NCBI GenBank assembly: GCA_051941275.1
Contig: JAVEBF010000019.1
Coordinates: 1-52,324, forward strand
DNA length: 52,324 nucleotides
Direction: 5' to 3'
Origin: Dirinaria sp. TL-2023a
Lineage: Eukaryota
How positions within the stretch are numbered: the stretch's first letter is position 1; each line of letters begins with the position of its first letter. The notes beneath the pieces are model-generated. The model had not been told where the DNA came from. It ran no database searches and saw only the letters and a program-made list of their open reading frames with translations. A program made the translations under genes and the position numbers. Positions 10,138-52,295 of the stretch are shown here, piece after piece.

Positions 10138-10986
10138 TCACTCCTCGACCCATTTCGCCTCCTTCCTCTCCACAAAAGCCTTCAGCCCTATCTGTCCGTT
10201 CACGCTGGCACACAAATCCTGGAAGACGCCCCTCTCCAGCTTGACGCCTTCCCGCAGCCCAACCTCCTGACTGCACTCCACCACCTCCCGCGCCGCTCGG
10301 ACAGCTCCAGGCGACAGTCCCGCGATGAGCGCGGCCGTCTTGACTGCCTCGTCAACACACTCGTCCGCATGGTCCAACACTTTAGAGGCGATTCCCCACT
10401 GCCCTGCCAGCACACCCCCCACTTCGCGTCCCGTCAACACCATTTCCATCGCCCGCGCTTTTCCCACCGCCTTGGCTAGCCGCTGGGTCCCACCTGCACC
10501 GGGTATCAACCCCAACCGGACTTCCGGCAGGGCAAACCGCGCCTCGGCGCTGCAATAAAGCACATCCGCCATAAGCGCGAGCTCGCAGCCGCCACCGAAG
10601 GCGATGCCGTTGACTGCGGCGATAATAGGGCAGCGGCGTTGAGTACAGGTGAAGAGAACGCGGGACCACTCCGCCGGGAAATCGCTGTTCGTGATTTCCT
10701 CAGCCGTGAGGTTGAGCAGCTCCCGCACATCGGCGCCAGCGCAAAAGGCCCGCGGGGATCCGGTCAGGACAATCGCCCGAACAGTGCGGGGAGAAGCGAA
10801 TAGATCGCTCAAACAGGTGTTGAGGTCATGGATGAGCGCAGAAGAAAGCGCGTTGAGGGCTCGTGGACGGTGGAGCGTTATCTGGGCCACGCCGGGGGAG
10901 GGGTAGGTCAAGAGAAGGTTGCTGTAGGGGGAAGGCGAGCTGTCCGGTGCAGCAATGGCTACTGCAGATTCTATTCGCGTTGACAT
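10138..10986 (-). CDS. Enoyl-CoA hydratase/isomerase (crotonase family), intronless
   Basis: ITLHRPRALNAL, AFCAGAD, AVNGIAFGGGCELALMAD and LPEVRLGLIPGAGGTQRL; both catalytic Glu positions are present. Confidence 0.93.
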   Translation of the reverse strand: MSTRIESAVAIAAPDSSPSPYSNLLLTYPSPGVAQITLHRPRALNALSSALIHDLNTCLSDLFASPRTVRAIVLTGSPRAFCAGADVRELLNLTAEEITNSDFPAEWSRVLFTCTQRRCPIIAAVNGIAFGGGCELALMADVLYCSAEARFALPEVRLGLIPGAGGTQRLAKAVGKARAMEMVLTGREVGGVLAGQWGIASKVLDHADECVDEAVKTAALIAGLSPGAVRAAREVVECSQEVGLREGVKLERGVFQDLCASVNGQIGLKAFVERKEAKWVEE

Positions 10987-11513: not shown

Positions 11514-11524
11514 GACTCGGGTCC
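11514..11524 (+). promoter_or_regulatory. GACTCGGGTCC motif, copy 1 (ECH/P450 divergent promoter)
   Basis: Exact 11-mer shared with three other cluster promoter sites; a near-copy AACTCGGGTCT lies at 11639-11649. Confidence 0.7.
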
Positions 11525-11764
11525 CGCAGCGTGGGCAGAAATCAGGCACCGTGCCAAGTCAGTGGTTCTTGGCTAAACACCAAGTCAGTACCGCATCCTC
11601 GAGTTGATAACAGGACCCCTAACGAGATAATCTAATCAAACTCGGGTCTGAATTATGTAGCTCGTCGTGCTCGTATATCCATTAAGCAGTAGTGATGGTA
11701 GACGAATAGACTTACCTTCAGCAACCCAGTGTCGCGCTCTACCAAAGCACGTCGCTCTAACGAA

Positions 11765-13594
11765 ATGGCTTTCATACCTCCGCTGACTCAGTCGTTGCCG
11801 ACGACATTGCTCATCAGTGCTATTCTCTTCTTTGTGATCTATGTTGGCTACAGTGCTCGAAGCTATGCCAAATTGAGCCACATACCAGGGCCGTTCTTGG
11901 CGGCATGGTCAAATTTGCCACGGATGTACTGGGTATGGACCCGTGACTCGCACCTCATTCATACCGATCTCCACAAGAAGTATGGCAAGCTGGTGCGCCT
12001 TGGGCCCAATTCGATTTCGTGTGGAGATCCTGCCGAAATCCCCAACATTTATGCCTTCAATGGCAGATGGATCAAGGTAGACACCTCCGTTTGAACGTAA
12101 ATTCGGCGTGGATTGCTCATCTCCAATTGCACCAGTCCGACTTCTATTGGACCTTCATGCCGCTCAATAATGGCAAGATCACGCCCATGATGTTCACCAC
12201 ACAAGACGAGGACCAGCATCGGATGCTCAAACGACCAATCGCCAACGCGTACGCCATGAGCAACCTCGTGAAATTCGAGCCCTTGGTCGACAGCACAATG
12301 GATGTCTTTTTTCAACAAATTGACAAGCTGTTCGTGGAAACAGGCAAAGTGTGTGATTTTGGCGTCTGGTTGCAGAGATTCGCATTCGATGTCATGGGCG
12401 AACTCACGTTCTCCAAGCGGATGGGTTTCCTCGAGCGTGATGAAGATATTGGTGGGATCATGCAAGCGATCTGGAACCATTTCGAGTATGCTTCTGTGGT
12501 AAGGTCGTCATCCTAGCCATCAATCCCCACGCAACGTTGACGTTGTTTGCTTTTGCAGGTTGGGCAGATACCGTGGCTCGATTACTTTGGCAAGAAGAAC
12601 CCCATAACCTGGAGATTCCGCAAAGCCAAGCTCAACCCTGTCGTGACGTTCGCCATGGCCAACGCTGCTGAACGAAAGAAGGAGAAGGAGTCGGGTGATC
12701 CGGAATCGGCGTTGGCTGATAGGGATTTCTACTCACGCTTTCTCGATGCCAAGCTGAAAGATCCGTCGATCCCAGACTGGTTTGTATCCTGCGACCTTGA
12801 TATGACCGTATGCTGAATGTATCGCTTTGCAGGGCAGTCATGGCCTGGACCACTTCGAATATCACAGCGGGAAGTGACACGACGGCTATCGTTATGCGCT
12901 CGATCCTGTACAACCTTTTCAAGCACCCCCAGAGTTTATCTCGGCTTCTCGAGGAGATCAAGACGGCAATGAAGGAGAATCGTATCTCCAATCCAATCAC
13001 TTGGAAGGAAGCACGAGACCTGCCATTCCTGGACGCTTGTATCAAGGAGGGTGGACGTATCCATCCTCCGTTTGGGTTGCCGTTGGAAAGAGTCGTGCCA
13101 GCTGAGGGTGCGACGATCTGTGGAAAGCGTCTCGAGGGAGGCACGGCGATCGGAATTCACCCTTGGGCTGCCCACAGGGATAAGGCAACTTTTGGAGAGG
13201 ATGCCGATATATGGAGGCCAGAGAGATGGTTGTGTGACGAGGCGCAGAGAAGGACGATGGAGGCGGGGTTATTGACGGTAAGTACCTGATTTGGCATACC
13301 CTTCGACAGCGCTCGCTCACGGGAATCGATCTAGTTCGGAGCTGGCCATCGAGTGTGTCTCGGCAAACATGTGTCGTACATGGAAATCTACAAGCTGATC
13401 CCCAGCCTCTTCCAACGTTATGATGTAAGTCGTCGCTCCATGATAGAACGGCACTTTTCCAGATAAAAACTAATCTGTGTGATTAGATCGAGGTGGCTCA
13501 GCCGGACGAATGGTTCGTAGAGGCTCGGTGGTTTGCTGTGCAACGCAACTTTCGCGTCACTTTCAGGCGGAGGGACATTGAGAAGATGTCATGA
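11765..13594 (+). CDS. Cytochrome P450 (pisatin-demethylase/MpaD/CicH-like group); 6 exons
   Basis: N-terminal TM anchor followed by IPGP; I-helix AGSDTT; ExxR (KEGGR); PERW; heme motif FGAGHRVCLG in the exon after 13334; stop TGA 13592-13594. Confidence 0.93.
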
Positions 13595-14416
13595 GCCAAG
13601 GGTGATGAATGCCTTCGAGAAGTAGGCATCCTTCTTGACTGCTTTCTAGAAGGACGGTTTCCTGTGGGTGGTAGAGTTATGATAGAGTCTATAGATCGTA
13701 GGGACAGACAAGATGTAAGATTACTACTATCGTACCTTAGTTAAGGTAGCAGTCCAAGGGAAAAGGCGCGACATGTGACCGAGCCGTGGTTTGCTTAGTA
13801 ATCAAGGCCCTTAGCAAAGCCCTTAGCAAAGCACTCTCGGCCCCATCGCTTCCAAACTTCATCCACTGTACTTCCCAGTCCTCAAGGCAACAGTCCTCGG
13901 ATACATACTCCACCAGACTGACATCCGTTGAGATCTGGAATATGTATTTCAAACACAAGTACCTGTGCAGTAGCACGTCGGAATTGATGCAAGCGAGCTA
14001 TCGAGACAAGCGCTGGGCTACTGCTTGTGAATCCCAATCGGTCAGCAAGCTGAACCCATCAATGCCCCCGGCGATACGCAAATAGGCTGTAGATACAGGC
14101 CATCAGAACTATGCGTTCCCTTCTACAGCTATTCAGTGGTCGAATGCAGTCACGATTATCCCCTTCTCAGACACTGCACCTATGCCGAAGTCTAATGATT
14201 GCTAATGAGCCTCTATGACCGTCTATCAAGCACCCTTCCCTCAATCAAACTATAGCTTCCTCTCAAGTCGATAAGAGATCCCGAAAGAGGTGGACACACT
14301 GGACAGCCAAGAATGCATTGCATTGTTTTGCTCTGCATGCTCCGTGGTCTCGACAGCTCTGATGACCCTACAGGTACCAAACGATACTGATGGAGTCACA
14401 TTATGCTGCAGAAGCT

Positions 14417-15416
14417 TCACTGCAGCCAGTGCTCACTTACAAATGCTAGGCCTTCTTTCAGCCAGTCGGTTTCCAACGTCGCTGGTACGTCGAAGCCGTG
14501 ATTGCCAGGCGGTGTCTTCAACAAGACGCTCGTTGTCGGATGAGTGCTTTTCAATGCTTCAACAAATTTCTCACTTCCTTCAACCGGAACCGCCGAGTCC
14601 TCATTCCCGTGGAAAATGAACATCGGCGGTACGCTTGACACTTGGTCCAATTTTTCGAGAGGGAATAAGTCTGGCTCAGTTCCAAAGAATTCGAGATAAC
14701 GGCCGTTCTGTACGATGCCGATTGCAAGGTCCCATCGCGCCGGTGGATTTGCGCTCGAGACAATCTGGCCCTTCTGTACCGATCCGAGGTGCTCATCTAC
14801 AACCTCGTTCGGAACCGGGGCATGACCCAGGATTGGCTTGTCATACTTCTTTTGGAAGAACTCGCTCTTCATGTCTATCATCGGGTACATCCCGATGATG
14901 GCTTTGATAGAATTTACGGGCTGCGTGAAGATTGACTGCACCGCCAGGTAACCTCCTGCGCTGTCCCCTACCAGCAATACCTTATCAAAATCGGCCTCCT
15001 TAGATGCGCCCACCTCCACGAGGTATGGCTCTAGGTCACGATGGAACCATGTCCAGAAATCAGAAAGATCGTCCAAAGCGTCTCTTGCCGAAGATTCCGG
15101 AAGCAGGCGGTAGTTGGCTGAAACTATAATAGCAGAGTTCAAAGCAGCATATTCAAGAAGCCACGACACGAAGAAAAACGGAAACAAGGACGTGCCCGTG
15201 ATCTTCGGGGTAGAGGTCAGATTTTTGGCTCCGTAGAGAGACTTGTATAGCACTTACGAGGTAACCGCCGTGAAATCTCACTATAACCGGGAGTTTTCCT
15301 GGCTTCGCATTCTTTGGCACGAGCACATCTACACCGATGGGCTGGTTGTTGACTGATTTGTATCCCGTACTGTGAATGTTGAACTTGGCAAACTTTTCGG
15401 GTCCTTCTGGCTGCAT
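14417..15416 (-). CDS. Alpha/beta hydrolase (HSL-like esterase; candidate trans-acting thioesterase/acyltransferase); one intron near 15204-15258
   Basis: Oxyanion HGGYL, nucleophile GDSAGG, acid HGNEDSAVP, His in GNHGFD. It is head-to-head with the HR-PKS, 328 bp apart. Confidence 0.9.
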
Positions 15417-15744
15417 TTTCGCACTTTTCCTTGCTTTCGACTGCGGAAGAATGAAGTGACTGCTTTCGTCGAGGAATCACTTTCCACTCATGAATTGGGA
15501 GCGTGAGGTGTGCGACCGCACTCCTTTTCACTCGGGACCTATAAGGACCCGGCTTTTCAGCCTTACAGGCTGGGACTCCAACCAACAGTTGACTCGCTTA
15601 GTGGGTACTCTAGGCATTCTCGCATTGTCGACTAGCAGATCTCCATGCTAAGGGAGCGTCCGCCGTCCTCTATGAAGCAATTTTTTTAGAAGATAGTCAT
15701 GCTGTGTAGTCTGCTTATGTAATCACCTTCTCCTTGCTTTCACG

Positions 15745-18700
15745 ATGCCGGGCAGAGTCAACGGCGTCAACGGCCTCACCCAGCCGCAAAGCAATGGCTA
15801 CACTGACAATGCCCGGAACATATCTCACAGTAACGGCCTCACCAATGGCTTTACTAATAATCACGACATGTACAATAGCGATGGGGTAGCTACACCGAAT
15901 GGATCCAATGGCTCTCTTGATGATCCCGATCTCAACAGCGCGAGCAATGGCAATGGAATTCACAGCTTGGATGACGAGCCGAATGATACGGACATGGCCA
16001 TTGTTGGGATGGGTATGCCGCTATTGCTAAGTTTGCGATCCAGTCCGCTGACGACTGAGGTGGGCAGCATGCCGCCTTCCTGGGGACGTACGTGACCCGG
16101 CAGATCTCTGGGACCTGGTATCAAAAGGAAGATCTGGCCATTGCAAGGTCCCATTGTCTCGTTTCAATATCGAAGGATGGTATCATCCAGATCCTAAGCG
16201 TTCGGGCAGTCTCAACATGCAGGGAGGCTATTTTCTGAAAGAGGATATCAGACAATTCGAAAACAGGTTTTTCGGCATCAACAATAAAGAAGCAGCTTCC
16301 ATGGACCCGCAACAGCGCAAGTTGCTCGAAATTGCTTTTGAGTGCTTTGAGAATGCCGGCTTAACTCTTGATGCATGTGCCGGTGCTAACATCGGATGCT
16401 ATGTGGGCAGCTTTTCCTTAGACTATCTTACTTCTCAGACGCGAGATATCGAACAGCTCAGTCGATTTTCGGCGACAGGTCTGGGTACAACGATCTTGAG
16501 TAATCGCATCAGCCATGTTTTCGATCTCAGAGGGCCCAGGTAAGTTTGTCATCGGGATTGACCGAAGCGATTTTGACCACTTGTAGCGTCGTTTTGGACA
16601 CGGCTTGCTCCTCCTCGTTGTACTCACTTCATGTCGCCTGTTCAGCGTTGAGGAATCGAGAGTGCGACGGCGCACTTGTAGCTGCAGCAAATCTAATACA
16701 GTCCCCGGACCAACAGATGCTGCTTGCAAAAGCTGGAGTCCTTTCGCCTACGTCGCAATGCCACACCTTCGACGAAAGCGCTGATGGTTACGGTAGAGGT
16801 GAAGGTGTTGGAGCGTTGTACATCAGGAGATTATCAGATGCCATCCGCGATGGAGACCCTGTGCGAGCAGTAATTCGAGGTACTGCGGTTAATTCGTAAG
16901 CTCATTTGCCAACGGTGGTATCCCGCTTCGCGATTGATATTGTTCGTAGGAATGGCAAGACGCAGGGAATTTCTCAACCAAGCGCCGCGGCACAGGAAGC
17001 AGTCATTCGAAAAGCATACGCTCAAGCAGGAAACCTTGATCCCCGTTTAACAAATTATGTCGAGTGTCATGGGACAGGTACACAGGCTGGAGATCCTGTG
17101 GAGCTTTCTGCAATCGCAAAGGTCTTCTCTCCTACCCGAGACTCCTCGAACCCACTATTGGTTGGGTCTCTGAAGACCAATATTGGCCATGGTGAAGCTG
17201 TTAGTGGAATTTCGGCTATTATCAAAACCGTGATGGCCTTCGAGCAGAACTTGATTCCTCCGAATTACGGCATCAAGAAGTTAAATCCAAAGATACCGTT
17301 TTCCGCGATGGCCATCGATGTGGTGACCTCGAACAGGAATTGGCCTTCTGGTATCAAAAGAGCAGGAATCAATTCTTTTGGCTACGGCGGCGCTAACGCG
17401 GTGAGTCGTCTTGAACGTCTACTACACATCACGAGCTCAACTATCTGCAGCACGCAATACTCGAAGCTGTCGAGTCGGTTATACCATACTATCACCAGGA
17501 CAGGGAATACAGGAGTCAGCCACCTCGAAGTTCTCTTAGAACAAAGTTCGTTCTTCCGATATCCGCATCTAACGAAGCAGCAATGAACGGCACGTTGCAA
17601 TCAATCAGGTCTGCCGACAAAGCATACGATTTACTCGACCTAGCCTATACTTTAGGCACCAAGAGATCAAGGCTCCAATCAAGAGGCTTCCTGGTTGCTG
17701 ACAGGAAGCAAGGGCTTCAGGATGATAGCCTTGTATGCGCGGAGAGCCGCCGGTCTCCAAAGCCACTAGCCTTTATTTTCACTGGTAATCTCCCTGGAGC
17801 CATTTTGCATTAAGCGACTTTGCAACTAAGTAGACTGCAGGCCAAGGAGCACAGTGGCCGCAGATGGGGAAAGAGTTGATGACAGAGTTTCCCTCATTCC
17901 TTCGAACCATACGCGAACTCGATGATGTTCTACAGCGAACACTCCATCCTCCGAATTGGACCTTGGAAGGTGATTAACAACTATATGCGCGTCAAGATGA
18001 AATAGCTGATATTTTCCCAGATCTGATCCTTGCACCAAAAGAAACCAGCCAAATTCATCATGTGACTCGGTCTCAGCCTATCTGCACTGCTGTCCAGATT
18101 GGACTACTGAGACTTCTGCACCGGGGCGCTGTCCGACCCTCGGTAGTCGTAGGACACTCTTCGGGTGAGATCGGCGCTGCTTTTGCGGCCGGGCTCATCA
18201 CAGCAGCTGAAGCGATTGTCGTCGCCTATTATCGAGGCTATGTCATTGACAAAAGCAATGCTCAAGGATCCATGATGGCCGTCGGACTCGGAGAAGATGA
18301 TGCTCTGTCTTGCATAAATGCTACCGACAATGAAGGGGCTGTTGTGGCCGCTTGTTTCAACTCGCCCTCGAGTACAACGCTGAGTGGCGACGAACGTGCC
18401 ATTGACACACTAGTCGACCATTGCAATGCCAGCGGAGTATTCGCCCGCAAACTAATGACAGGTGGAAAAGCATACCATTCGCACCATATGTATCCAATTG
18501 GGAAAGAACTTGAAAGACTGATCACCCAGGCTGTTCAAGGATTCTCAAAACCAAAAAGAATCGACAGCGAGGTCATCATGATCTCGTCCGTCACTGAAGG
18601 TGTTATAAATGGTCGGCCGCTACCTAACTATTGGCGGCAGAACATGGAGTCTCCTGTTCGCTTTTATCAAGCGGTCAAGAAGCTCATCTCTACAGGGGAG

Positions 18701-21700
18701 TACCACTTTGTCGAGATAGGTCCGCACTCCGCGCTTGAGCAGCCAATCAAGGCTATTGTCAAGGAATCGGGTCAAGGTGGGGACACTTATCCCTACAACT
18801 CCGCGATGATTCGGAGCAAGGATTCAGCGGTTTGCTTCTTGAATTTAATCGGAAATCTCTTTCTTCACTGGCATCCCATAGCCTTTGAGAAGATCAATGA
18901 AGTGGAAAGCCACAAGGATACCGGCGAAACCACACAAGGGAAGCTTTTAACGAATTTACGCCCATACAGATGGACGTACGACGATACTATTTCCTCCGAT
19001 ACTCGCATAAGCAACGAATTACGAGGCCGGAAGAACCCCACGCATGATCTTCTCGGGTCCGTCGTGCCAGGTTTTGACGGCGTGTGCTTTGTCTGGCGGA
19101 ATATCCTATCTTCGAAAACTGCTCCATGGCTTTTGGACCACAAGATAGGCAAGTCTGCGGTGTTTCCAAGCAGTGCTTTCATAGCGATGGCCTTGGAGGC
19201 TGTCTGTCAAACACTCGACGTCGTCCCAGTGCCAGGAAAGGACGCATTCACTTTGCGCGACCTAAGCCTACAAAACATGCTGCCCGTGCCAAGGGAAGAC
19301 GAAACGACAGAAATATTTTTGAAGCTGTGGCGTGAACGGTATGTATATGCAATGATAAACCCAAGCCGAACTCAAATAGGCTTATATTCGCAACATCACT
19401 AATTCTGATTTCCACATAGGATAACCGCGTATAGCACATCTAATAGATGGTTTGAGTTTGAGATTACCTCCTACAGCGAAAGCTCGCCAATGATTCATTG
19501 CTCAGGTAAAGTGTCACTGGAACGAGATGCAGGTCTTGAAGGCAGTGAAAAGGCTGATACGTCGACTCCATTGATGGAATCGAGCGGTCACAAACTTTGG
19601 TACGACGCGTTAGAGAGGAACGGCATAACCTACGGACCATCTTTTGTATCAATGAGGTCTATTAAAACACGCCAAATTAGCTCACAACTTCACGCATACG
19701 CCGAGACACCTCTTTTGCGACAGCTAGAGTCCTACAAATATCCAGAGTCTCGCTACATCATCCATCCGACTACTATTGAAGCTGGGATACAGCTTGCACT
19801 CGTCGCCGCTGCCTCTGGGGATCTTCGACAAGTGAAAGCTAGTGTCCCTGTTTTCATTGAACACTGCAAGATTGTGGTACCGCCGTCGGACCGTGGAAAT
19901 CCTGTGTTGGAAATGGAAGCATCATCCCGCGCTGCGAGTGTCCGTTCCTGGGAGTCCCATGTCACCTTTCGCAGCCAATCCAGCCAATCTCTAATTGAAA
20001 TATCCGGCATCTCTCTCGTCAACCTCGAAGTCGAGCAACAGAAGAACAGCTGGGCAGAGCGTCACCCCTGCCTCCGGATTTCGTGGAAGCCAGACTTTAC
20101 TCGCTTGGAAGATTCTTCCTTTAGCCACTTGTTAAGCACTTACGAATCATCCGTCGCTTCAGACTGTGAAGCCCCAAGCTTCAAAACTCTTTGCGCTGCC
20201 CTTGAAGTGCTAGCTCATAAGAATTCACGTATGCGTGTTCTGGAATTGGGCCGAGGATGTACCTTCAAATCCCAGACCTTTATGAAATCTTTGAAGTCGG
20301 GAGCTGCGGTGAAAATGTATAAGACGTATGCGGTTGGCGATATTAACAGCAGCGGTCAACTCTCGTTTGAGGTAATACATGATATCGCCAGAGTCAAAGG
20401 CACAAGATCTGCTTTGTCAGACCCCAAGTCCGCTTTCAACTTGATCATCATACCAGAAGTATGTCAGGGAAAAGTAGAAGTCGATTATGTATACTGATTT
20501 GTGCGCGCAGAAATCAACAGCACATATGTTGCTGCCGGAAAAGTGGGAGCTTCTTCAAGCCCATCTCCTTCAAGGAGGCGTTATCCTCTTCAACTCCTCC
20601 CCTTCGCTTGCACGCCATATGCAGGAGCTGGGTTCAGTCGTACCATTGTCAGAGGTCGCTTCGGTCTTCATGGTCACGAAGATGACCACCCGGTCTAAGA
20701 GGACTCTGCCCACCATTCTTATCGAGCCTTCAGCCAAACCCTCTAACTTCGCCCTCTCCATTATGGCAGCCATGCCAACGACACGCATAGACCTTTGTGA
20801 CGCCAATGAGTCCAATATCCCTGACAGGGCCAATGTAATTGTGGCACTGGAACAAGATGCCCCCTTTTTGAGCACCATGACAGGTGCTCAGATGGATAGC
20901 TTGAAAGTCATCGTGAAGAATGCTGGCCATGTTCTATGGTTGACTGAAAGGGACATTATCAGCGGCAGTCGCCCAGATTTCGGCCTGGTGCCGGGTTTTG
21001 CCAGAGCACTGATGCTTGAACAGCCTGGTTTGCGCTTCTCGACATTCGCCACAGGCGATGCCACATCCGACTCTAATTTGGTTGCCAAGCATACCGTCTC
21101 CATTCTAGATGGAGTGGGTAGCGAGGCTTTCCCCGAGGACCTAGAATTCGCACAGCATGACGGTCTGCTACATGTCAGTCGCTTCGAATACGATGATCTC
21201 TTGAATAAGCGATTCCAAGAAGCAATGGGCCGGCAAACCGTTACTAGACCATTGAAGGAAGCTCTCCCCGCTAAGATGAAGTTCAGAGTACCCGGCGTTG
21301 CAGAAACAGTCTCATTTGAACAGATGAGTGCAGACTTAGTCGGACTACAACCCGATAATGTCGAAATAGAGGTCATGTCCGTTGTCATCAGCCCTCAAGA
21401 TACCGATCACTCCGCGGGTAGGGTTCATACAACCGACGAGTGCAGCGCAACAGACTATAGCGGTATTGTTCGATCGGTGGGCAGCTCGGTCTCAGAGCTG
21501 ATCCCAGGTGACCGTGTGGTAGTTATGGCGCCTGGTAACATCCAGACCATTCAACGCTGTCCCGCATGGGCTTGTCATAAAATGCTCAAGCATGAAAGCT
21601 TCGAAAGCGCTGCGTCTTTGCCTACCAACTTCGCTACGGCGATTCACGCTTTGGAAAAGCTGGCAGACCTTCAACAAGACCAAACAGTTTTGATTCATTC

Positions 21701-23590
21701 CGGTGCGAGCAGTCTAGGAATTGCTGCCATCCAGGTCGCTCGAGCGATCGGCGTGGAAATCTTCACCACAGTGAGCACCGCAGAAGAGCGCCACTTGCTT
21801 CGAGATACCTTCTCGATAGCCTCGGACCACATCATTTCTCTGCATGGCTCTAGTTTCGTTACAGAGATCTTGAGCCGAACAAGGGGACAAGGAGTCGATG
21901 TTATTTTGAACACTCTGGCTGGAGATGGTCTACATGATACATGGCGACTATGTGCTCCCCTCTGCAGCTTTATAGATCTCGGGCGCAAGGATGTCAATGA
22001 TGCCGGAAAACTTGAGATGCGTCAGTTCAGCAAAGGTGTTACGTATACGGCGTTCAACCTGTTAGACATTTACCACAGCGCGAAACATCGAAAAACATGG
22101 GCGAGTCTTCTATCGACTGTTATGAATCGGTTTCGGCAAGGAAGAGTCGCTCCTATCCATCCGATACATATCCTCGGGCCGGCGGAAGCTACTCAAGCTA
22201 TCCAGAGATCGTCAGGGAAAATTGGCAGTACCTTCGTTCTTTCTTTCCAGGATCGAGAGATCCCAACACAGGTTGTTCTTTCTCAACACCGCACAAATCT
22301 CAGCCCCACCAAGACTTACCTGCTAGTTGGCTGTCTGGGAGGGTTGGGCCGCAGCCTAAGCAAATACATGATGAAACAGGGCGCCAGACGGTTTGTTTTC
22401 CTCGGGCGATCAGGATGCGATAAACCGGATGCCCAAAGATTAGTGGAAGGTATGATTAGATCCGGTGCAGATGTCCAAGTCATTCGTGGCAACGTTCTAG
22501 AACCGGGTGACGTCGAAGCGGCAGTTCGAGCAAGTAAGACTCCTATCGGTGGCGTTGTACAAGCAGCTATGGGCCTTGGAGTAAGTTGCCCTATGATCTA
22601 ATACTTCTTTCCTCCAGACTAACTCGCTTTTCATAGGAGGCGCTCTTTTCGAATATGACCAATGAGGCCTGGCACACTGGTATACAGCCTAAATACAAAG
22701 GCACATATAACTTACACTACGCTCTCGAGGGGAAAGATGCAGATTTGGATTTCTTCCTCATGACAAGCTCTGTTTCCGGCAGCACCGGCTTCACTTCAGA
22801 AGCCAATTACTGTGCATCCAACGCCTTTCTAGACGCTTTCGCACGCTATCGACGTAGCGTTGGCAAACCAGCAGTGGCTGTAGGTCTGGGCATGATCTCT
22901 GAAATCGGATTTATGCACGAGGATGCCGAAACGGAAGCTCGGCTCTTGCGAAAAGGCGTCCAGGCTCTGCCTGAAGATGAATTCCTGCAGATCATCGATT
23001 TGGCGCTAAGCGACTCCCTGAGTACCACTACAGCAGACGGCCATCCTCTTTACGATCCTTTAAAATCAAGCCACATCTTGACTGGCCTGGAGGTTAACAG
23101 CGTCAAAGAGCTCCGCAGACAGGGGTTTGATATTTCACCAGCAGCGTTCGAAGACGTGCGAGCCGCAGCCTTAGCCGCCAGTCTAGACGCCGAGGACGAG
23201 AGCCCGGCAGCAGCAGTCGCAGAATCAGGTACCTCGACAAGCGAGACCTCCTCTCCGGGACTCCCACAAGAAGTCACTGAGACGGCGGCAACGAAGAAGG
23301 CAAAAGATGGTCCCGTAATAGACCCTGTCACCGCGATTGCGGACCTCGCGAGAGCGAAACTCTCGAACCTCACCCTCATCCCCGTCGCCAAGATCAATGC
23401 CCAATCGCCCATTTCGGAGTATGGCATGGACAGCTTGATCGCGGCCGACTTCCGCACCTGGTTCTACCAGACTTTCGGCGGCGTCGATGTCCCGTTCACA
23501 GAGCTGTTCAAGCCGACTGCGACGGTGAGCGGGTTGGCTGAGTTTGTGGCTAAGGGGATTCAGGGGATTGCGGATGGGAAGAAGAAGTAA
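15745..23590 (+). CDS. Highly reducing iterative type I PKS (KS-AT-DH-pseudoMT-ER-KR-ACP); about 10 exons
   Basis: KS DTACSSS, ECHGTGT, KTNIGHGE; AT FTGQGAQW, GHSSG, AYHSH; DH LLDHKIGKSAVFP; ER region LIHSGASSLG; KR VGCLGGLG and NYCASN; ACP YGMDSL. All exon junctions checked by eye restore the frame at GT-AG sites. Confidence 0.95.
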
Positions 23591-25143
23591 ACTGGATCAG
23601 GGTGCTTGTTTGGGTATGTGTTTTGTGAGATCTTTGTCGGAGTCTTTTTTGGGGGGTTTCATATAGATTGCTATGCAGCTTTGGATAGATGGAATGTATC
23701 ATTATATCCTATTTTAGAACTTTTTTTTTTTTTCCTTAGGACCGCTCGAGTTTCAATGTCTGTGTGACGTGTCTCTCTAGAGTAAAACCATATCTATGTG
23801 TCAGAAAATCACCTGTTAGTCGTTCAGATGAACTTCGCAAAACTTTGAATTTTGAAATGAGTCTATGAGTACCCGTACCCAAAATTCAGACCGTAGCAGA
23901 ATAAAACGAGTCCACATGATTCAACCAAACATCTTCCACCCTCTAGTTACAGTTTCTACATTGATGCAAAAGCATGAGTGTGCATTCTATTCTTCCAAAC
24001 CCTTTACGAACCTTGATTATCCATTCCTCTCCTACCCTAGGTAGGAAAGACTTCGTTTCTAAACGGATTGTCAAAGACCAGCGATGAGGATCACCTGTAC
24101 GTGATGCTGGCTACGAACCTATTGCAATGTCAATAGAGCCAAGTATCCTCCTGTTGACGATGAGGGCACAGTGAGAGCAGTGTGTCCTCGTGATGACAAC
24201 TGTGGCCTGATCTGCTACATGCGTCTGAACTCGAAATCCGCGTCAACGTCGATTGTTCTGCGTGATTGACGTTTTACGTTGACACGAAGTCAAGAGAGAA
24301 AATAAAAAGGATTCGACTTGTTTCACGCGGCTCCGTCTTCAGCGACATCGATACTGTTACTGCCGAGAACATCCCCTTCGATTCGCCATCCTTCATCAGT
24401 TACAGTGCTACGTTTTGTAGACTGCAGCAAGTTCTCCTCGATATTCAACACGTCACGAGTACGATCAAGAGATGAAGACCTCGATATTACGAATACAAAG
24501 ATGTTACTAGACCGAGAAAGAGCTTCAGTTCTAGAGGTTGTTTCTTTACTTTTGATCACAGGATGAACCACGAGTACCGAAACGCTCCTCTGAAGTGACA
24601 GTAGGAGGCGTCGATTAGAGAACCGAGGCGATTGTGCCGAAGAAAACCACTCATTAATACATTGTTATAAATACAGAAGGATTATAGATAGATTGTTTTG
24701 ATGGCCGCATAGCTAGTCCTGATTGAGGACGGGCTCCGAGTGCCTAATGAAGTAATCAATCAATCAATCAAACGGACTGTCAAAAGACATTATCAACGCA
24801 CATATTAGGCACTGCATGTTTTGATTCTACGTTAAGTGCAGCTTAAAAAGGGGGGTCACAGCGCGATAAATTTTTTCTGCAGTTGCATTCGAAATTCGTA
24901 CTTGAGTCTATATCTAATACATATGAGTCGTGCCATGATGAGGGATAATTGTCAATCTTTTCGCTGCTGCTAATGTACATCTAAACCCTTCCTCAGAAAC
25001 CCCCTCCCCTTCCTTGGGAAATCCTTCACCCTTTGCTATTCCCTGAAGTCTACGGCATCCAAGCACCCTTCTATAACAATTTTGACTGGGCGTGAATGAT
25101 CACCCAGATGGCACTGCTCACTCGCGAGTAGAGCTGATATGCC

Positions 25144-26844
25144 TTACATACCCTTGAGCGACAGATCGACGAGGGACAACATCGCGCCCGCATACTTGGC
25201 CCCAACGTTCCACTTGTTATCGCGGGTCCGGACACTCGACGCGTAGAGCGCCGCTGCGCCAGCAAGGCTCGGTCCACTGGCGACCAGCTCACCCAAGTCC
25301 TGCACCTCGAGGATGTTGAGTGCGCGCGTGAGGACGAAGAATACGACGCTGCGGTCCAGGAGCACCTGCCAAAGTGCGTCGCAGCCGTCGCAGAGGCGGA
25401 ACATGGAGACGATGGAACCCGCGGGCGGGGCGTCGAATGCGGCGTGGCCGACCTCGAGGACGAGGTTTGCTGCCGTCACGCACGACCAGGGCAGACTGAA
25501 CCAGAAGAAGCTCCACAGCATCCCCAGCGCTTGGGTGTATCCTGCGGCGCGATTGTCTGTCAGCATGCCATGCGTTGTATTGATTGATGTGTTTGGGAGA
25601 GTGATTTTCTTACCGTTCTTTCTGAAGCCCATCTTCTTGCCAAGGTAAATGACAAAGTCTTCGACCATGATGATGCAAGCTTGGCTCATCCACATTGTGT
25701 ACATCCCTGCCGAGTGGCGATGGACCAAGTAGGCTCCGCCGTGATGGCAGATGGACGAGAAGAAGAACCCGAAGAGCAATTGCGAGTATCTCGACCACAA
25801 TGTCCCGCGCGGTATGCGGAGGAGGTTGACGACGAAATCAGTCGGGGCGGAGATGGTTTTGCGGATCTCCTGATGCCAGACTTTGCTTTATGCGGATCAG
25901 CAGGACGCCCAAAACAGGACCGCGGTTTCACCAGAGTATGTACTTACCCCCACATGTTCCGGACGCTCCAGGCATCTCTGCGGTAGGAGCCGAACAGCGG
26001 CGGCCATTGCTCTGGCCTGCAGATCCCCAAGGCAGTCGTGATGGCCCCGAGTGCATAGTAGGGCATGTGGAGAGAATGGTAGGATTCGACGGCGACCAGC
26101 CATACCACGATGGTGCGCGTCACATATTCCTCCTTGTAGATATCCGGCTTCGTGAGCGAAGGATCAGTGAAAGCCTTGGCGTCGCCATAGCGAGTGGTCT
26201 TGAGGATGGACAGCGTCGTGTCAATGGCCAGATATGCGACGATGGTTCGGCGGATGCAGTGTTTGACGAACTGTCTGTGTAGAAAAGATCGATGGTCAGC
26301 ATGCGGCACCGATCAATTTCCCCTCTGTACTCTGCACTCGAACAGAGGCTGCTTACATCCTGGAACTGCCTGGAAGAGGACCGGGTTGCAGATTCTTGAC
26401 CTGCCAATTCCATCCGATGCCTCTGTCGGTGCACCATAAACTGATGCTCCAGCGAATTTTCTCCAGCAAACCTCGATCCGGGACGGGGGATACTTTCTCC
26501 GACGCGGACCGAGCCTGTTCCGGGACTCGCCAGTATTTTCTCTCGGGGACGTGGAACACGACGAAATCAAACCATTTCACAGTCACCGCCGCCATGAATA
26601 CGCCCGCCGCGAAGTCTCCGCCCGAGTCTCCTGTCGTATAATTGGGTGTGTAAAGAAGCCATGCCAGAATGATGGGTCCGAACAGCGAAGCACGCAGCAC
26701 TCTCATGCTCGGCGGAGGCACGCACGACAATGCGCACACGGCCAAGTAGCCAGGAAACCACCATCCCGGCGCCAACTTCCTCTCCCCCATCGGCACAAGC
26801 CATTGCGCGTACATCCTGCCCACGGTGTTGAGCTGCTCCATCAT
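25144..26844 (-). CDS. Membrane-bound O-acyltransferase (MBOAT_2/wax synthase-like, Tri7-type); at least 4 exons, 3' end uncertain
   Basis: Hydrophobic multi-TM protein with RGIGWNWQV, WPPLFGS..AWSVRNMWGKVWHQ and FFFSSICH (conserved His) after splicing. Confidence 0.87.
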
Positions 26845-26917
26845 GTGCAAATGCTATGTCCTACCAACTGCTTCGAGCTGCTTGGGCCATGATATTCGTT
26901 GAGCCATCGCATAAGAT

Positions 26918-26928
26918 GACTCGGGTCC
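26918..26928 (+). promoter_or_regulatory. GACTCGGGTCC motif, copy 2 (MBOAT/NRPS-like divergent promoter)
   Basis: Exact 11-mer. Confidence 0.7.
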
Positions 26929-27215
26929 TACCCATTGTTGGGAGTCCTGAGTGACCGATAATCCACATTCACACCCAACATGAGGCGGTAAGCACTCAGC
27001 CTCGACCGGGTTTGCGGGCCTGCTACTTGGGAAGTCCTTTCGTAAAACCCTGGCCTACCATACCGGTCCGTCTCCTCGCTAAGGCTCCACCAGTGCGAGT
27101 TTCAGCTCCAATTGATCGACTCAGCGCAACGCCTCTCATGGAAATGAGGTTTTCATATCTGTCAACCGCTTTCTTGCTTTCACTGAGTCGCGATCTATGG
27201 CACTGGATTTCTCAT

Positions 27216-27226
27216 GGACCCGAGTC
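27216..27226 (-). promoter_or_regulatory. GACTCGGGTCC motif, copy 3 (reverse strand; MBOAT/NRPS-like promoter)
   Basis: GGACCCGAGTC on the + strand is the exact reverse complement. Confidence 0.7.
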
Positions 27227-27430
27227 TCTCCAATCAAACGGCGAGTAGCGCGTGTATGTGCTGACTGTCGAGCTTTGACCATGAGGCGTAGAGGCAGAGG
27301 CTCATACCTCAGATTCGCCTAACCATCATGATTGGCAATCTATGAGCCGTTCACATTTTCCTAGCCCTTCGAATTTCTGTAGCACCGGGAGGCTTTTCCT
27401 TAGGCTTGAGCAACCAGCCTACACGCTGCG

Positions 27431-30400
27431 ATGTCTTTGCCCAATTCATACAATTTGTTTCGCCGTGCTACCTTTCAGATTGACTCCAAGACCGAAAGAT
27501 CTGATTCGATTCGCACTTTGCCCGAACTTGTCGAATTCAACGCAATCCACAATCCCCAGCATTTGTTTTGTGTGCAGGCCAACAAAGCTGGAGAAGCTAC
27601 ACGAATTTCACATCTTGAATTGAAGTATGCCGTTTTGCGATGCTCGGCATGGCTTAGGGACAAGGTCCCAGGCCTCAAGGCGCCCGAAAAGAGCGAAGAT
27701 GGCGAGATCTCAAGGGGACCACCAATAGCTTTACTCATGGAGAGCGATATCGGGATTTTTATATATTTCCTATCTTTGCTGAGTATCGGAGTCCCTGTAA
27801 GTATTACGTCGGCGCGGGATTCTTTTTTGCTCATTTAGTGCCCTCTCTAGGCGCTTATTCTGTCTGCGCGATTAAGCCCGCATGCTATCAACAAACTTCT
27901 TACGGAAACGAAAGCATGCTCGATCTTGACATCATCACGACTTGCTAGAAATGCGGCTGAGGCTCTCTCACTGGCCGAGCCGCCGCAATCAGAGCTCCCC
28001 CAGCTCTCAGAGGCCGAATCCTACAAATCGTTCTTGGGCCTGGACTCGCCGCCCGAGGATGAACTTTGTGCTCGATATCATTACATAGACAAGCATGATC
28101 GCAATGTCCTGATTCTGCACTCATCGGGGACTACCGGCTTACCCAAGGCTCTTCCGCACGCGCACGAATTTTTGATGAGGTTTGTGGGCTGCCATGAATT
28201 CAATATTGGGCCCGATTCAGAGAGCCGAAACCTATCAACTCTTCCACTCTACCATGTGAGTCCAGATCTTTCTTGAACTGTGGTGATGTTGAATTAATGG
28301 CAGTGTGCAGGGTTTTGGTATGGTCGCCCCAATCTTATCCCTCAGCATTGGCAAGACTCTATGTCTTCCCGCTTCGTCCCTTGTACCTACTGGTCCCTCT
28401 ACCGTCGAAGCACTTTGTGCTTCTCAGGCATCCTCATTGATGACTGTGCCTTCGATTTTGGAGGAGCTCTGTGATATGCCTGATGGAAAGGGCACAAGTC
28501 CATTAGCGAACCTTCGATTCGTAGGGTTTGGTGGAGGGCTTCTGAAAACTTCTGTTGGAGAAAGACTCGAGGCGGCCGGAGTGCAGGTAGTAAACACTCT
28601 CGGTACTACAGAAACCGGGCCACTGTCTCCCATGTTCATTCCTACTTCGGAGTATGATTGGCGGTACTTTAGGGTGCGGAAGGATTTGGATTTGAAGCTG
28701 GAGGAGCTGCCAAGTACCAAAGGCGAAATTCCGCGATTCAAGTTGATTGCGTATCTCGTGGAATCGGATACGCACTTTGAACTGCAGGATTTGTTGATTA
28801 GCAGCCCCAAGAGCCCCGGCACGGATTTTACTACTATTGGGAGAAATGATGATCTCATTGTACTGGCCACTGGGGAGAAAGTCCTTCCAAGTATTCTGGA
28901 GAATAAACTCTCGGCGAATCCCTCCGTGAAGACTGCGGTCGCGTACGGGGAAGGGCAGTTCGAAATTGGCGTAATTATCGAGCCATCCCTGCCCATCCCA
29001 ATTGAACAGCTTGAGAGTTTCAGATCATCTCTCTGGCCCATTGTCCTCGAGGCGGGGGAACAGATGGATGCCCACGCACGGCTTTCATCGACAGCTGGTA
29101 TCGTCGTGGTACCAGCAGGAAAGAAGATTCCACGAACAGACAAAGGATCCGTCGCACGGAAAGAGGTCTATCGAATTTTTGAACCGGAAATAGCGCATGC
29201 TTACCGAGATCTCGAGAACAACGTTTCCGACGCGTCACTGCAGACTCTCAATTTAAGCGTCCTCGAAGAAGACTTGAAAAACTTAATTCAGTCTCGCCTC
29301 AACTGGAAGATTCCTGCAGAACAGTGGGGTTACAATGATGACTTCTTCGAACTGGGTATGGACTCGCTCCAGGCAACCCGACTCCGCCGCTTTTTGGTCG
29401 CATGTGTCCCTGTGTCTCTGAACGTCTTGCCACCAACGGAGTGGATTGGCCGGGATTTCATATACCAGCACCCATCGATCAGTCAACTGGCAATGGGGAT
29501 CAGAAGATCGAAGGGCCTTGCAAGTTCAGAGAAAGACCTTCAAAGTCAAATCAATGAGTATGTGCGCTTGTACTCGGTCAAGAAGGAGTCAATTTCGCCC
29601 AAATCCCCAGGCTCGGTCATACTGTTGACAGGCAGCACTGGCAGTTTGGGGTCCCATTTGCTATCTTGTCTGGCTTCTCTACCAGACGTTGATCGTGTCA
29701 TATGTCTCAATCGTCGTCACCGTGGTACCAACATCGACCCGCAAAAACGGCAGCTGAGCATCATGGAGGGTCAAGGACTCACCCTCAGCTCGCACGCATG
29801 GTCGAAAATCCACATCATCCAGACCGATCTTGAAGCACCATTATTTGGGCTTGCAGAGTCTACGTATAAAGATATCTGCTCCCAAGTAACCCACATACTT
29901 CATAATGCCTGGCCGATGGATTTCAACCGGAAGTTGCCTTCATTCAGAGCCCAATTCCAAGTCACGCGCGACCTTCTAAATCTCGCGCGAGCTGCGCACG
30001 CCGCTCAACCGCTTATGAGACCAAAGCTTCTCTTCATCTCGTCTATCGCTGTTGTCGGGCAATATGGGACTGTCCACGGAGGCACTCTGGTGCCTGAGAC
30101 ACCTATCCATGATCAGGCTTGCACAACATCAATCGGCTATGCGGCCGCGAAAATGGTTTGCGAACAGATTCTGGAGGCAGCAGTGCGTGACTTTGGGGAT
30201 GAAATCCAAGCGGCGTACGTTCGGGTTGGTCAAATGTCTGGTTCTAAGCAGACCGGTTTCTGGAATGTAGACGAGCATTTTCCAGCATTGGTGAAGTCGT
30301 CTCAGAGGATCGGGAAACTTCCACGTCTAAATGGAGTGAGTGCTCTACTATTTGTTTTCTAGCCGAAAGCTGACGATGGTACAGACTTTTTCGTGGATCC

Positions 30401-30798
30401 CCGTAGACTGGACAGCTCAAGTTTTGTCTGAAGTCTTGCTAAATACCGAACAGTCCCCCACAGTCTTCCACCTCGAGAATCCGATCAGACAATCATGGCA
30501 TGATGCACTTGCTATAATCAGTCGGGAGTTAAATATTCCCGAAAACGGATTCCTACCATTTGATGAATGGCTTAACGAGGTTTGTGCCGTCAGCGAAATC
30601 AGGGCCGGAGACAACCCAGTGAAAAAGCTGTCAGAGTTTTTCAAGACGAATTTCAAACGAATGTCAACAGGCACGGTGACGTTAGCGACGGATAATACGA
30701 GAGCAGCGTCTCCAAGTCTTCAAAGTCTCGGGGAAGTTCAGCAAGAGACGATTGCAGGCTACGTCAAGTATTGGAGGAGCATTAGATATATCCACTGA
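27431..30798 (+). CDS. NRPS-like A-T-R enzyme (aryl-acid/carboxylic acid reductase, ATEG_03630/AscB/CicB type); 4 exons
   Basis: A domain LHSSGTTGLPK, GRNDDLIVLATGEKV, PRTDKGSV; T domain FFELGMDSL; R domain LLTGSTGSLG, HNAWPMDFN, GYAAAK, RVGQMSG. Confidence 0.94.
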
Positions 30799-31213
30799 TT
30801 TTGCATTTACTTTATCAAACGGTGAGCTTCAATAAATTGTTGGTTTTGCCTATAGCAACGGTGTAGATGGGAAAAAATCCTTGGATTGTTTCATATTGTT
30901 AGGATTGACTTGCAATACATTAAGTCTGACATTGGTTTGGGCATCTTCAAAACCATTTTCGTTCAAGAGATGATGCCTGTAAGCAGAATGCTAAGACTAG
31001 GCCTGTATAGATGCCACAGCGGCCGAAAGGTGCTTTACGCTTCGACTAGAGGCTACCGAACCGTTCACCGCTAGTATTGGGATGTTAGCCAGCCTGAGTT
31101 GATCCTCGTGTTTCTCATCGATCGTCAGGGAGCTGGGGAATCTGCGGGATCTTCGGCGGGAGCTTTCGTATCATCTGGTTCAGCTGGTCTGGTATCGACT
31201 CCTGAAACTAAGC

Positions 31214-31224
31214 GACTCGGGTCC
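31214..31224 (+). promoter_or_regulatory. GACTCGGGTCC motif, copy 4 (NR-PKS promoter)
   Basis: Exact 11-mer about 280 bp upstream of the ATG at 31500. Confidence 0.7.
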
Positions 31225-31499: not shown

Positions 31500-34400
31500 A
31501 TGGCTTGCCCTTCGCTTGTTGTGTTTGGCTCACAAACAACCTGGCCATCACCCGAATATTTGTCTCAGTTGAGAGCCACGCTGCTTCTTGAACCTTCTTT
31601 GCATCCTTTCCTTACCGCTATCAAAGACTTGAACAGTACATGGCAAAAGCTCGTGCAATGGGATCCTCGTCTCAAAGCGGTACCAGGTAAAGAATCACTG
31701 GCAAGCATTAGCCATTGGCTCGACCATGGCGATTTCCCAACAACCCCCAGAACATTCCCTAACGTGTTATCCACTCCTTTGACGACTATCATCCACATCG
31801 TTCAGTATCTGCGCTACATGGAGGAAAACAAAGCTATCTCCCACGCTCAAATCCTGGAATCCGCTAGCAAAGCAGGCGTACAAGGATTTTGTACGGGGTT
31901 CATGACGGCGTTGGCCGTCGCTCTGTCAAAAAATGAAGCAGATGTAACCAGAATAGGCGGAATTGCCCTAAGACTAGCTGTGGCTATTGGGGCGTACGTC
32001 GATCTTGACGGAGCTTACGCTAATCCTCCCAACGAGACATGTTGCTTTGCAATCCGATGGAGGGCGGAAATAGGAAAAGACAGGGTTTTGGAGATTCTCA
32101 AGGCGTATCCAGACGTATGTGCTCCGATCTCAATAATTCGAGACTTGTCTAATATATCTTGTTAGGCCTACGTGTCCGTTATTACGGATTCGACAAGTGT
32201 GACCATCACCGCTACCACTTCCACTTCCGCCTCACTGTGCCATGAACTGTCCTCGCATGGTATTACTGTAAAACCAATCAGTCTCCAAGGCCGTTTTCAC
32301 TCATCTGCTTTGAATGAGTCGGCCGACACCTTGTCGAAGTTTTGCGATGCCACTCCGGAGTTGCAGTTCCCCGGTGCAAGTCAACTTCGCGTACCTGTGC
32401 GCTCGAACGTAGACGTCCAAACGATCACTGGTGGCTCCCTTCACAAGCTCGCCATAGACGCGATTCTGACCCAACTTTGCGATTGGCATCTCACGATTTC
32501 TGCCGCTACCGCTCAATTGATGCAAACGCCACACACGTCGATCCTGCAAGTCGGGATGGTGGATTGCATCCCTGCCGCGATCACTCGAGAACGAAGCCTT
32601 CAAATAACGAAGGTCGGCACTTCGAGATTACTCTCTGCTTCGTTACCTGGCTCCGGCTCACAGCTGAGTTCTGGTAATGTTACTCCCATGGTGCTAGCCC
32701 CAGAAGAAGCTCGCTATCCAGAGCATGCGATCGCGGTCGTGGGCATGGCGTGCAAGTTCCCCGGCGCGGAGTCTCCCAGCGAGTTCTGGGACCTCCTTAC
32801 CGCGGGGACTTCGACACTGTCGCAATTGCCTCCTGAGAGATTCTCCGTAGAGGGACTGCGTCGTTCATCGGAAGACAAGCTTCGGTTCTGGGGAAATTTC
32901 ATCAGCGATGCTGACTCATTCGATCACGCTTTTTTCAAGAGATCCTCGCGCGAAGCGGCATCGATGGATCCACAACAGCGTCTTCTTCTTCAGATTGCCT
33001 ACGAAGCTATGGAGTCCTGTGGCTATTTCGGGTCATTCGGTAATTCAAATTTAGCCTCGGACGATATTGGCTGCTACCTGGGAGTAGTAAGTTCTGCTCT
33101 CGCAACCACTTTCAGGCTGGCTGCACTTTCGTAAAGAAGAAATTGCTAACTGAATATCTAGGGTGCCACGGATTATAGTGACAATGTTTCGTCACATGCA
33201 CCAACAGCTTATTCGGCCCTAGGAACGTTGCGCGCCTTTTTGAGTGGCAAGATCAGCCATTTCTTTGGATGGACTGGGCCGTCCATAACCTTTGACACTG
33301 CATGCTCGTCTTCTGCTGTAGCTATTCACGCTGCTTGCAAAGCGATAGAAAGTGGCGAGTGTTCACAAGCCCTTGCCGGAGGTGTGAGCCTCTTCACCAG
33401 TCCAAACATGTACCAGAACCTAGCGGCAGCATCATTTTTGAGTCCTACCGGAGCTACAAAGCCATTCGATGCAAAGGCTGATGGCTACTGTCGAGGCGAA
33501 GGTGTTGGACTAGTAGTCCTGAAAAAATTGTCTGATGCTATAGCTGAAGGCGACAATGTCCTCTCGGTCATTGCTGGTTCTGCAGTGAATCAAAACCACA
33601 ACTCCACCTCCATCACGGTCCCGCATTCCGAATCTCAGGTAAAACTTTACCGGAAGGCGAACGCTCGTGCTGCTGTCCGTGCCTCGGAAGTCTCTTATGT
33701 GGAAGCTCACGGAACAGGTACTCCTGTGGGTGACCCTATTGAGTTCGAGAGCATTCGAAAAGTATATGGCGGAGCGCAGGTACGTGGCTGGATCTCCTCC
33801 AAATTATTAATGCCCCAAAGTATGATGGCTAACTCATCTGTCATCAGCGAACCAACCCTGTGCATGTGTCTTCTGTCAAAGGAAATATTGGCCATCTCGA
33901 AGGTGCCTCTGGCGCCGCTGCGTTGATCAAAGTCACACTTATGATTCAGAACAAGAAGATCCCTCTACAGGCGAATTTCACGTCGCTTACCCCTAAGATC
34001 GCCCCCTTGGAGCCTGACCACATGATAATTCCGACGTCAAAAGACAACGATTGGAATGTAAATTTCAAAGTCGCCTGTATCAACAATTATGGCGCATCTG
34101 GAAACAATGCTGCAATGATTGTATGCCAGCCGCCTTCACGTCGCCAAGCTGTCACAAACCACTATGTTTCACCCAAGCATCCGATATTCATGTCTGCAAA
34201 CTCTTCAGCCAGTTTATCAGCATTCTGCAAGGCGCTTACCAGGTATATAAACTCATTTGACAGCGGTAACCCAGAGAACTTGCTTGCCAACATCGCCTAT
34301 CACCTATCCAGCAAGCAGAACCGGTCTCTTCGGTATTGTTTGACTTCCACTGTCTCCAGTCTCTCGGAATTCAAGGATCTTCTCAGCTCCGGCATTGCAG

Positions 34401-51861: not shown

Positions 51862-52295
51862 TCTTTGTTTCCAGCATTGGCATGGGATGGTCATATATAC
51901 AGACAGATCCACATATATATATGTATATATATATAGAGTTATTGCGCCCTTCTTGGTATCTATAATCGAGGGATTAAAAACAGATTCTGATGTATGAAGG
52001 ACAAAAATTTGTATAAAAAAATCTTAGCGGATTATTTGGATCAATGTTGTCTATATATATTTACCGTGTTCCTGTGGACCCGACGCTTCGATTTCGATAA
52101 AACCTGACGAGTGAGCATCGAATTTCGGCGGCAGAAGACACGAAAGCTTAGCGGAAACCCATTCCTGAATGATATGGGTACGTATATATATATACATAAC
52201 TTCAGAATGGATTTATTAGGCTTGGGGGGAAAGGTAGGGATTTTGAGAGGCTAGGTTTTCGTAATGTATAGACAGGTTGGATATTTTACATACCG

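Follow-up and report, generated by a model that had tools for sequence, protein, structure and literature searches.

A conserved promoter 10-mer in a cichorine-like polyketide cluster of Dirinaria sp., probably read by the CicD-type Myb factor of the cluster

Contig JAVEBF010000019.1 of Dirinaria sp. TL-2023a, whose full length of 52,324 nt we refer to as the window, carries a cichorine-like gene cluster encoding a CicD-type Myb factor, a CicB-type reductase, a non-reducing polyketide synthase (NR-PKS), a GMC oxidoreductase and a cytochrome P450, plus a highly reducing polyketide synthase (HR-PKS), a hydrolase and an MBOAT acyltransferase. An initial annotation made from the sequence noticed that the 11-mer GACTCGGGTCC recurs in the promoters of this cluster and proposed it as a candidate cluster-specific operator. 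The question raised by the locus is whether this word is a regulatory site and, if so, which protein reads it. Our sequence comparisons indicate that the word, redefined as the 10-mer ACTCGGGTCY, is a real cluster regulatory element. With a probability of about 0.8, we consider that it serves as an upstream activating site in a family of fungal gene clusters for aromatic polyketides, each combining an NR-PKS with a CicB-type reductase, and that it is read by the CicD-type three-repeat Myb of the cluster, whose binding we infer.

Conservation was assessed independently in foreign clusters. A metagenome scan with the reductase alignment yielded 55 loci, which ended at 10 kb or at contig ends and formed 27 groups at 80% identity: 14 in the clade of the window reductase (two without upstream DNA were set aside), 5 in a sister clade and 8 further out. 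In an unbiased count of words up to 800 bp upstream of the reductase, from which the window DNA was excluded, ACTCGGGTC ranked first and was present in 8 of the 12 in-clade groups versus 1 of 8 other groups. ACTCGGGTCY was found in 9 of the 12 in-clade groups, with 24 sites versus 0.56 expected; because the groups share ancestry, these counts reflect retention under selection and not independent origins. All 24 sites lay outside recognised coding regions, upstream of genes for the reductase, NR-PKS, GMC oxidoreductase, O-methyltransferase (OMT), P450, short-chain dehydrogenase/reductase (SDR), MFS transporter, Myb, DMATS prenyltransferase or AtaL-like proteins, and the consensus was present in none of the 8 outer groups. 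The in-clade foreign clusters differ in gene order, and their reductases are 43-53% identical to that of the window. Conservation in related clusters, which the initial annotation had named as a check, was thus found, and the proposed operator stands as a cluster regulatory site; it is, however, specific to the cluster family and not to the single cluster.

Comparison of 30 foreign upstream sites did not uphold the 11-mer definition. Its first position was free (A in 7, C in 6, G in 8 and T in 9 sites) and its last base was C in 22 and T in 8, which points to ACTCGGGTCY as the true element, without the leading G. The flanks held at most 0.21 bits in these sites, and neither an extended consensus nor a half-site partner was found around the 10-mer. 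Since the core columns of the position weight matrix (PWM) were chosen with a pattern seeded from the window motif, only its free columns, which were not so selected, and the de novo word count are unbiased.

Within the window, the four exact copies of GACTCGGGTCC were found where the initial annotation had placed them (11514+, 26918+, 27216- and 31214+), each 75-290 bp upstream of a cluster gene, and the near-copies at 11639, 15529, 8126, 3620/3622 and 19050/19052 were all there as written. Shuffled windows held a mean of 0.02 copies, and 4 copies in 0 of 100 shuffles. Chance repetition picked post hoc would nevertheless be consistent with whole-window Markov simulations, in which some 11-mer reached 4 copies in 8 of 100 (order-3) or 32 of 100 (order-5) runs, making the copy number of 4 weak by itself, and with the 2-mismatch matches, which as a class lie at background in the window (19 seen versus 14.0 expected). 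When the post-hoc control was applied to the upstream regions of the cluster (6371 bp), any 11-mer with 4 copies appeared in 3 of 2000 and 0 of 2000 simulations, and the excess in the foreign clusters refutes chance. A repeat remnant was rejected as the source because the flanking sequences of the copies are unrelated. We regard the probability of either origin as negligible.

In the whole genome (27.7 Mb, 3105 contigs), GACTCGGGTCC occurred 8 times and its reversed-pattern control 12 times, and 4 of the 8 copies were on this 52-kb contig (P about 1e-10). Enrichment in the cluster against the genome-wide background, also suggested initially as a check, was confirmed for the 10-mer: its 53 matches in the genome lie below the 86 of the reversed control, with 5 on this contig versus 0.09 expected and 48 in the remaining 27.68 Mb. 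All five fall within upstream regions, which make up 12% of the window, and occupy three of the six such regions, serving up to 5 of the 10 genes; the other three regions have weaker sites. The element is thus rare and asymmetric, and is held upstream of cluster genes in either orientation.

The scarcity of the 10-mer relative to its reversed control also bears on a genome-wide TGACTC regulator of the Bas1/BasR or CpcA/Gcn4 type, which would couple the cluster to amino-acid or purine status. The initial annotation had drawn the Bas1 analogy, and TGACTC does occur, as stated there, in two of the four exact window copies; the hexamer is common to yeast Bas1 and Gcn4, and BasR affects several clusters, according to the accessible part of the source (PMC6234034). 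Like Bas1 and A. nidulans BasR, which are three-repeat-like fungal Mybs, the presumed reader has Myb repeats, and ACTC is common to both words. Unlike in their sites, the TG is not conserved and the GGGTCY extension is essential; Bas1 and BasR are broad regulators, whereas the window word is confined to clusters. The base preceding the first position of the 11-mer was T in 4 of 30 foreign sites, and information was confined to ACTCGGGTCY. The analogy fails because none of the 30 foreign sites reads TGACTC, compared with two of the five window sites. The free first position largely refutes such a regulator, which we consider very unlikely.

Rescoring with the foreign sites refined the list of window sites (Table 1). 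The near-copy at 11639 is a genuine fifth site, at 11640. Of six differences that close relatives (runs X1-X4, about 92-99% alike) have in 11450-11572, the four listed leave the site there intact. The site at 27216 belongs to a position class, upstream of the reductase, that is retained in foreign clusters. A site at 8127 is plausible, and its variant ACTCAGGTCC recurs upstream of foreign and paralogous cluster genes. The candidate at 15530 in the HR-PKS promoter is uncertain: a match as good as ACTCGGGACC has a P of about 0.01 in this 328-bp promoter, and its A at position 8 was found in 0 of 30 foreign sites. The earlier proposal that the HR-PKS module shares one regulon with the aromatic core is weakly supported for the HR-PKS itself; the MBOAT gene, a likely partner of the HR-PKS, has a perfect site. 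No foreign locus contains an HR-PKS. The near-copy at 3621 was rejected as indistinguishable from chance (P about 0.12), as was the match at 19051, since two matches of such score were seen outside promoters versus 3.0 expected. To the right of 31224 the window has no site scoring at least 11, which suggests that the cluster ends with the NR-PKS.

The best candidate to bind the element is the Myb encoded in the cluster, on circumstantial grounds; this part of the initial proposal survives apart from its Bas1 analogy. One Myb exon is 61% identical to protein P0165, whose 90% cluster includes A. nidulans CicD (AN6446) and which aligns across R1-R3 of c-Myb, and the window Myb and CicD have a short conserved C-terminal motif in common. 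Over its long exon the reductase shares 46% identity with A. nidulans CicB (AN6444), and the two group in a single clade with 99% support; the best named matches of the window reductase come from lichen-forming fungi. Both the reductase and the Myb trees are quick trees, and the latter left the fork between the window Myb and the CicD group unsettled while placing both outside the clade of the Mybs of L046 and C930 described below. In A. calidoustus, O. yallundae, A. varians, Z. cellare and A. nidulans, the locus tags of Myb and reductase homologues are adjacent or close to each other. CicD is a positive pathway-specific Myb regulator of the A. nidulans cichorine cluster, and deletion of cicD abolishes cichorine, as reported in the accessible portion of PMC8395729.

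Under our preferred reading, the CicD-type Myb (5003-6330) would bind a single copy or a pair of copies, regardless of orientation, that mostly lie 70-600 bp before the ATG, often in divergent promoters. It would co-activate the genes for the P450 (possibly with that for an enoyl-CoA hydratase family protein, ECH), MBOAT, reductase and NR-PKS, and probably also, via weaker sites, the 2-oxoglutarate (2OG)-Fe(II) oxygenase and hydrolase/HR-PKS genes. The three Myb repeats would be needed to read ten asymmetric bases, and binding would be expected to activate by likeness to CicD.

A one-base variant in the sister clade adds to the assignment. ACTCCGGTCY was found in 4 of its 5 groups, with 17 sites versus 0.29 expected (15 upstream and 2 in coding DNA), and in none of the in-clade groups, which points to a clade-wide change of the fifth base from G to C. 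In this clade the reductase gene is divergent to a thioesterase-type NR-PKS gene and accompanied by a flavin monooxygenase gene. In L046, the one sister-clade locus with a visible Myb, this protein belongs to a distinct clade (97% support) that has an insertion of one residue after repeat 1. The Dirinaria genome itself contains such a locus, split between contigs C930 and C852, with PKS residues 1-114 on one and 118 onward on the other. C852 has two copies of ACTCCGGTCC, the C variant, the first between the divergent PKS and reductase genes and the second ahead of the monooxygenase gene (0.05 expected, P about 0.001); its reductase falls in the sister clade, and C930 carries a Myb of the wider clade of L046. 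A G cluster and a C cluster thus coexist in one genome and differ in Myb subtype, and both C-word loci with a visible Myb carry another subtype than CicD. Wherever the fetched DNA of a foreign group includes a Myb, one of the two words is present (five groups: four G, one C).

These observations raise the possibility, to which we give somewhat less than even odds, that CicD-like Mybs recognise a family word, ACTC-N-GGTCY, that the Myb subtype dictates the fifth base of this word (G for CicD-like proteins, C for the subtype with the insertion), and that a single base insulates several Myb-run clusters in one genome. This intriguing code draws on two C-type Myb loci. If true, the word would predict the membership and boundaries of hundreds of uncharacterised clusters and find detached target genes, such as a transporter gene on contig C1841. 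The variant words suggest how paralogous clusters avoid cross-talk.

Several observations weigh against assigning the element to the Myb. The consensus is missing from 3 of the 12 in-clade groups (L028, L029 and L054), where no Myb is visible either, and the foreign site counts are not independent events, given the shared ancestry. No Myb is visible in 5 of 9 G-motif and 3 of 4 C-motif foreign groups, the loci ending at 10 kb or at contig ends. L044, of the sister clade, holds both variants, with a single G site. In the Dirinaria genome, contig C313 encodes a Myb together with a reductase and an NR-PKS, yet lacks the consensus and shows just one ACTCTGGTCT. Contig C1707 (L078) encodes a second Myb of the window's subtype, so the in vivo binder could be this paralogue. 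The in-clade paralogous cluster on contig C191 has an intron-split Zn2Cys6 gene and no Myb in 24 kb, together with four looser sites, ACKCRGGTCC, versus 0.08 expected for this pattern chosen post hoc. A de novo search of the promoters of the motif-less L028/L029, L030 and C313 gave no convincing alternative word.

The C191 cluster, with its related words, is the main argument for a functional element whose reader is some other factor, such as a Zn2Cys6 protein from another part of the genome, the Myb being no more than a companion in these clusters; the genome has 64 further Zn2Cys6 matches, and the Myb is not visible in 8 of the 13 motif-bearing foreign groups. Zn2Cys6 factors usually bind paired CGG triplets. 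The present sites, however, are single asymmetric 10-mers without paired triplets, their flanking columns are uninformative, and the CGG is not conserved, the fifth base being G, C or A by cluster. The A variants ACTCAGGTCC and ACGCAGGTCC hold no CGG on either strand, which weakens the earlier suggestion that the CGG core serves such a factor. Neither this contig nor the examined foreign loci, as far as these extend, yielded a Zn2Cys6 or Fungal_trans gene; the Zn2Cys6 pattern used did detect both halves of the C191 gene. The base switch also tracks the Myb subtype in both testable C cases. We therefore consider a reader other than the Myb unlikely, though less so than the other alternatives. 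The intron-split C191 gene had been overlooked by our Pfam genome search.

Related words mark other clusters and cluster fragments in the same genome. On C1707, ACTCAGGTCC lies just upstream of the Myb gene and ACTCGGGTCT upstream of a neighbouring sulfotransferase-like gene; this Myb may run C191. The C191 2OG enzyme is 56% identical to that of the window. The C313 Myb represents a third subtype, and L016, with the same subtype, has G sites. On contig C1841 (positions 2354-3009, L075), three sites, two of them in tandem, lie in the divergent promoter of a transporter gene and a Zn-dependent dehydrogenase gene; the transporter shares 52-63% identity with its counterpart in L027, a cluster that bears the motif, and the C1841 locus is a probable detached target or cluster fragment. 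Five other contigs with two matches each (C5, C9, C240, C290 and C83) were rejected as targets, their matches lying in housekeeping or coding context without a cluster, and no promoter pattern was seen at the other loci with methyltransferase-bearing PKS genes (C69, C27 and C144). Among the foreign loci, the Myb gene of L023 shifts frame within repeat 1 (4336-4710), which may reflect decay or misassembly; in the close relative L027 the gene is intact, and this locus has two sites between the GMC and Myb genes that L023 lacks.

The window cluster is like the cichorine (cic) cluster of A. nidulans in its CicD-family Myb, CicB-clade reductase, NR-PKS, GMC and P450 gene types, and unlike it in adding HR-PKS, hydrolase, MBOAT, 2OG and ECH genes. 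We take the cic genes beyond cicB, cicD and pkbA to include an O-methyltransferase gene; none was found among the window open reading frames scanned with Pfam. The cichorine cluster proper was thus rejected as an identity for the window cluster, which shows no OMT gene and has an extra HR-PKS/MBOAT module. The same site is predicted in the cic promoters of A. nidulans, where it can be checked in a model organism. No binding site for CicD or its relatives was found in the literature searched, including the accessible parts of PMC8395729, PMC6234034 and PMC11199622; supplements and motif databases lay outside this search, and an AN6446 motif could be deposited.

Among the pathway regulators of fungal clusters, the Myb type forms a minority, and the site of AflR exemplifies a cluster-specific promoter motif. 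The CicD-like Mybs form a large family, with 524 of 8000 scored proteins reaching E<=1e-30. The sharply defined, conserved 10-mer makes its regulator directly testable and provides a tool for delimiting such clusters and joining split contigs. Motifs shared by cluster promoters are of an established kind, as in the CASSIS/motif-density concept set out in the accessible part of PMC4824125; like those, the window has an island of promoters that share a word seldom met outside it, and the cluster encodes a transcription factor of its own. The window departs from typical cluster motifs in its Myb rather than Zn2Cys6 factor, in an asymmetric 10-mer that persists in distant fungi despite rearrangement of the clusters, and in the one-base sister-clade variant.

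The initial gene identities for the ten cluster genes agree with Pfam (Table 1). By loose inference, the product may be a methylated orsellinic-type aldehyde that is oxidised by the P450, GMC and 2OG enzymes and acylated by the MBOAT protein with the HR-PKS chain. RNA contigs from one sample of a 95-99% identical relative contain spliced joints in the P450, HR-PKS, MBOAT and reductase genes; the orthologous cluster in that relative is transcribed, nothing more, and contig depth is no basis for ranking expression.

Table 1. Genes and candidate sites of the window, and related loci elsewhere in the genome
Feature	Location	Strand	Remarks
GMC oxidoreductase	878..3043	-	Pfam; ends approximate
Three-repeat Myb factor, CicD family	5003..6330	-	Pfam Myb; intron-split
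2OG-Fe(II) oxygenase	8436..9508	+	Pfam
Enoyl-CoA hydratase family (ECH)	10138..10986	-	Pfam
Cytochrome P450	11765..13594	+	Pfam; spliced joints in RNA contigs of relative
Alpha/beta hydrolase	14417..15416	-	Pfam
Highly reducing PKS, KS-AT-DH-ER-KR-ACP	15745..23590	+	Pfam; no match for a methyltransferase domain
MBOAT acyltransferase	25100..26844	-	Pfam; RNA contigs of relative; 3' end approximate
NRPS-like A-T-R carboxylic acid reductase	27431..30798	+	Pfam; similarity to CicB
Non-reducing PKS, SAT-KS-AT-PT-ACP-ACP-MT-esterase	31500..39767	+	Pfam
Consensus site ACTCGGGTCC	11515..11524	+	250 bp upstream of P450 ATG (11765), 529 bp upstream of ECH ATG; top PWM score 18.7
Consensus site ACTCGGGTCT	11640..11649	+	125 bp upstream of P450; last-position T in 8/30 foreign sites
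Consensus site ACTCGGGTCC	26919..26928	+	75 bp upstream of MBOAT ATG (26844), MBOAT/reductase divergent promoter
Consensus site ACTCGGGTCC	27216..27225	-	about 215 bp upstream of probable reductase ATG (27431)
Consensus site ACTCGGGTCC	31215..31224	+	285 bp upstream of NR-PKS ATG (31500)
Variant ACTCAGGTCC	8127..8136	+	309 bp upstream of 2OG gene, 1.8 kb from Myb ATG; P about 0.02 for region
Weak variant ACTCGGGACC	15530..15539	+	328-bp hydrolase/HR-PKS divergent promoter; score 12.8
TCTCGGGTCC	3621..3630	+	578 bp upstream of GMC; score 12.7, P about 0.12
TCTCGGGTCC	19051..19060	+	within HR-PKS coding sequence
C191	L094-L096		two OMT, Zn2Cys6, MFS, reductase, GMC, SDR, P450, 2OG; no PKS on contig
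C313	L079, L080		Myb, reductase, P450, MFS and NR-PKS; degenerate sites only; 12-bp tandem repeat in P450/MFS promoter
C930 and C852 locus	L081, L092, L093, L097		Myb, PKS, reductase, monooxygenase cluster with ACTCCGGTCC sites

To the right of the cluster, positions 40908-52023 of the window encode a secreted protein without a Pfam match, a ZZ-finger piece and a tripeptidyl-peptidase-like subtilase, and contain no site. Between the HR-PKS and MBOAT genes, positions 24075-24760 correspond to a dispersed repeat of roughly 700 bp that has 41 matches in the genome, many of them 84-91% identical over most of its length, and no match in Rfam; the very deep RNA contig at this position is explained by the repeat. 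In the RNA contigs of the relative, positions 11573-11715 of the window are skipped with CT..AC ends, which identify a minus-strand intron, and the contigs continue unspliced into the P450 gene. The site at 11640 lies inside this intron and the site at 11515 in the leader. The RNA would represent either a long 5' leader of the ECH gene or an antisense RNA overlapping the start of the P450 gene.

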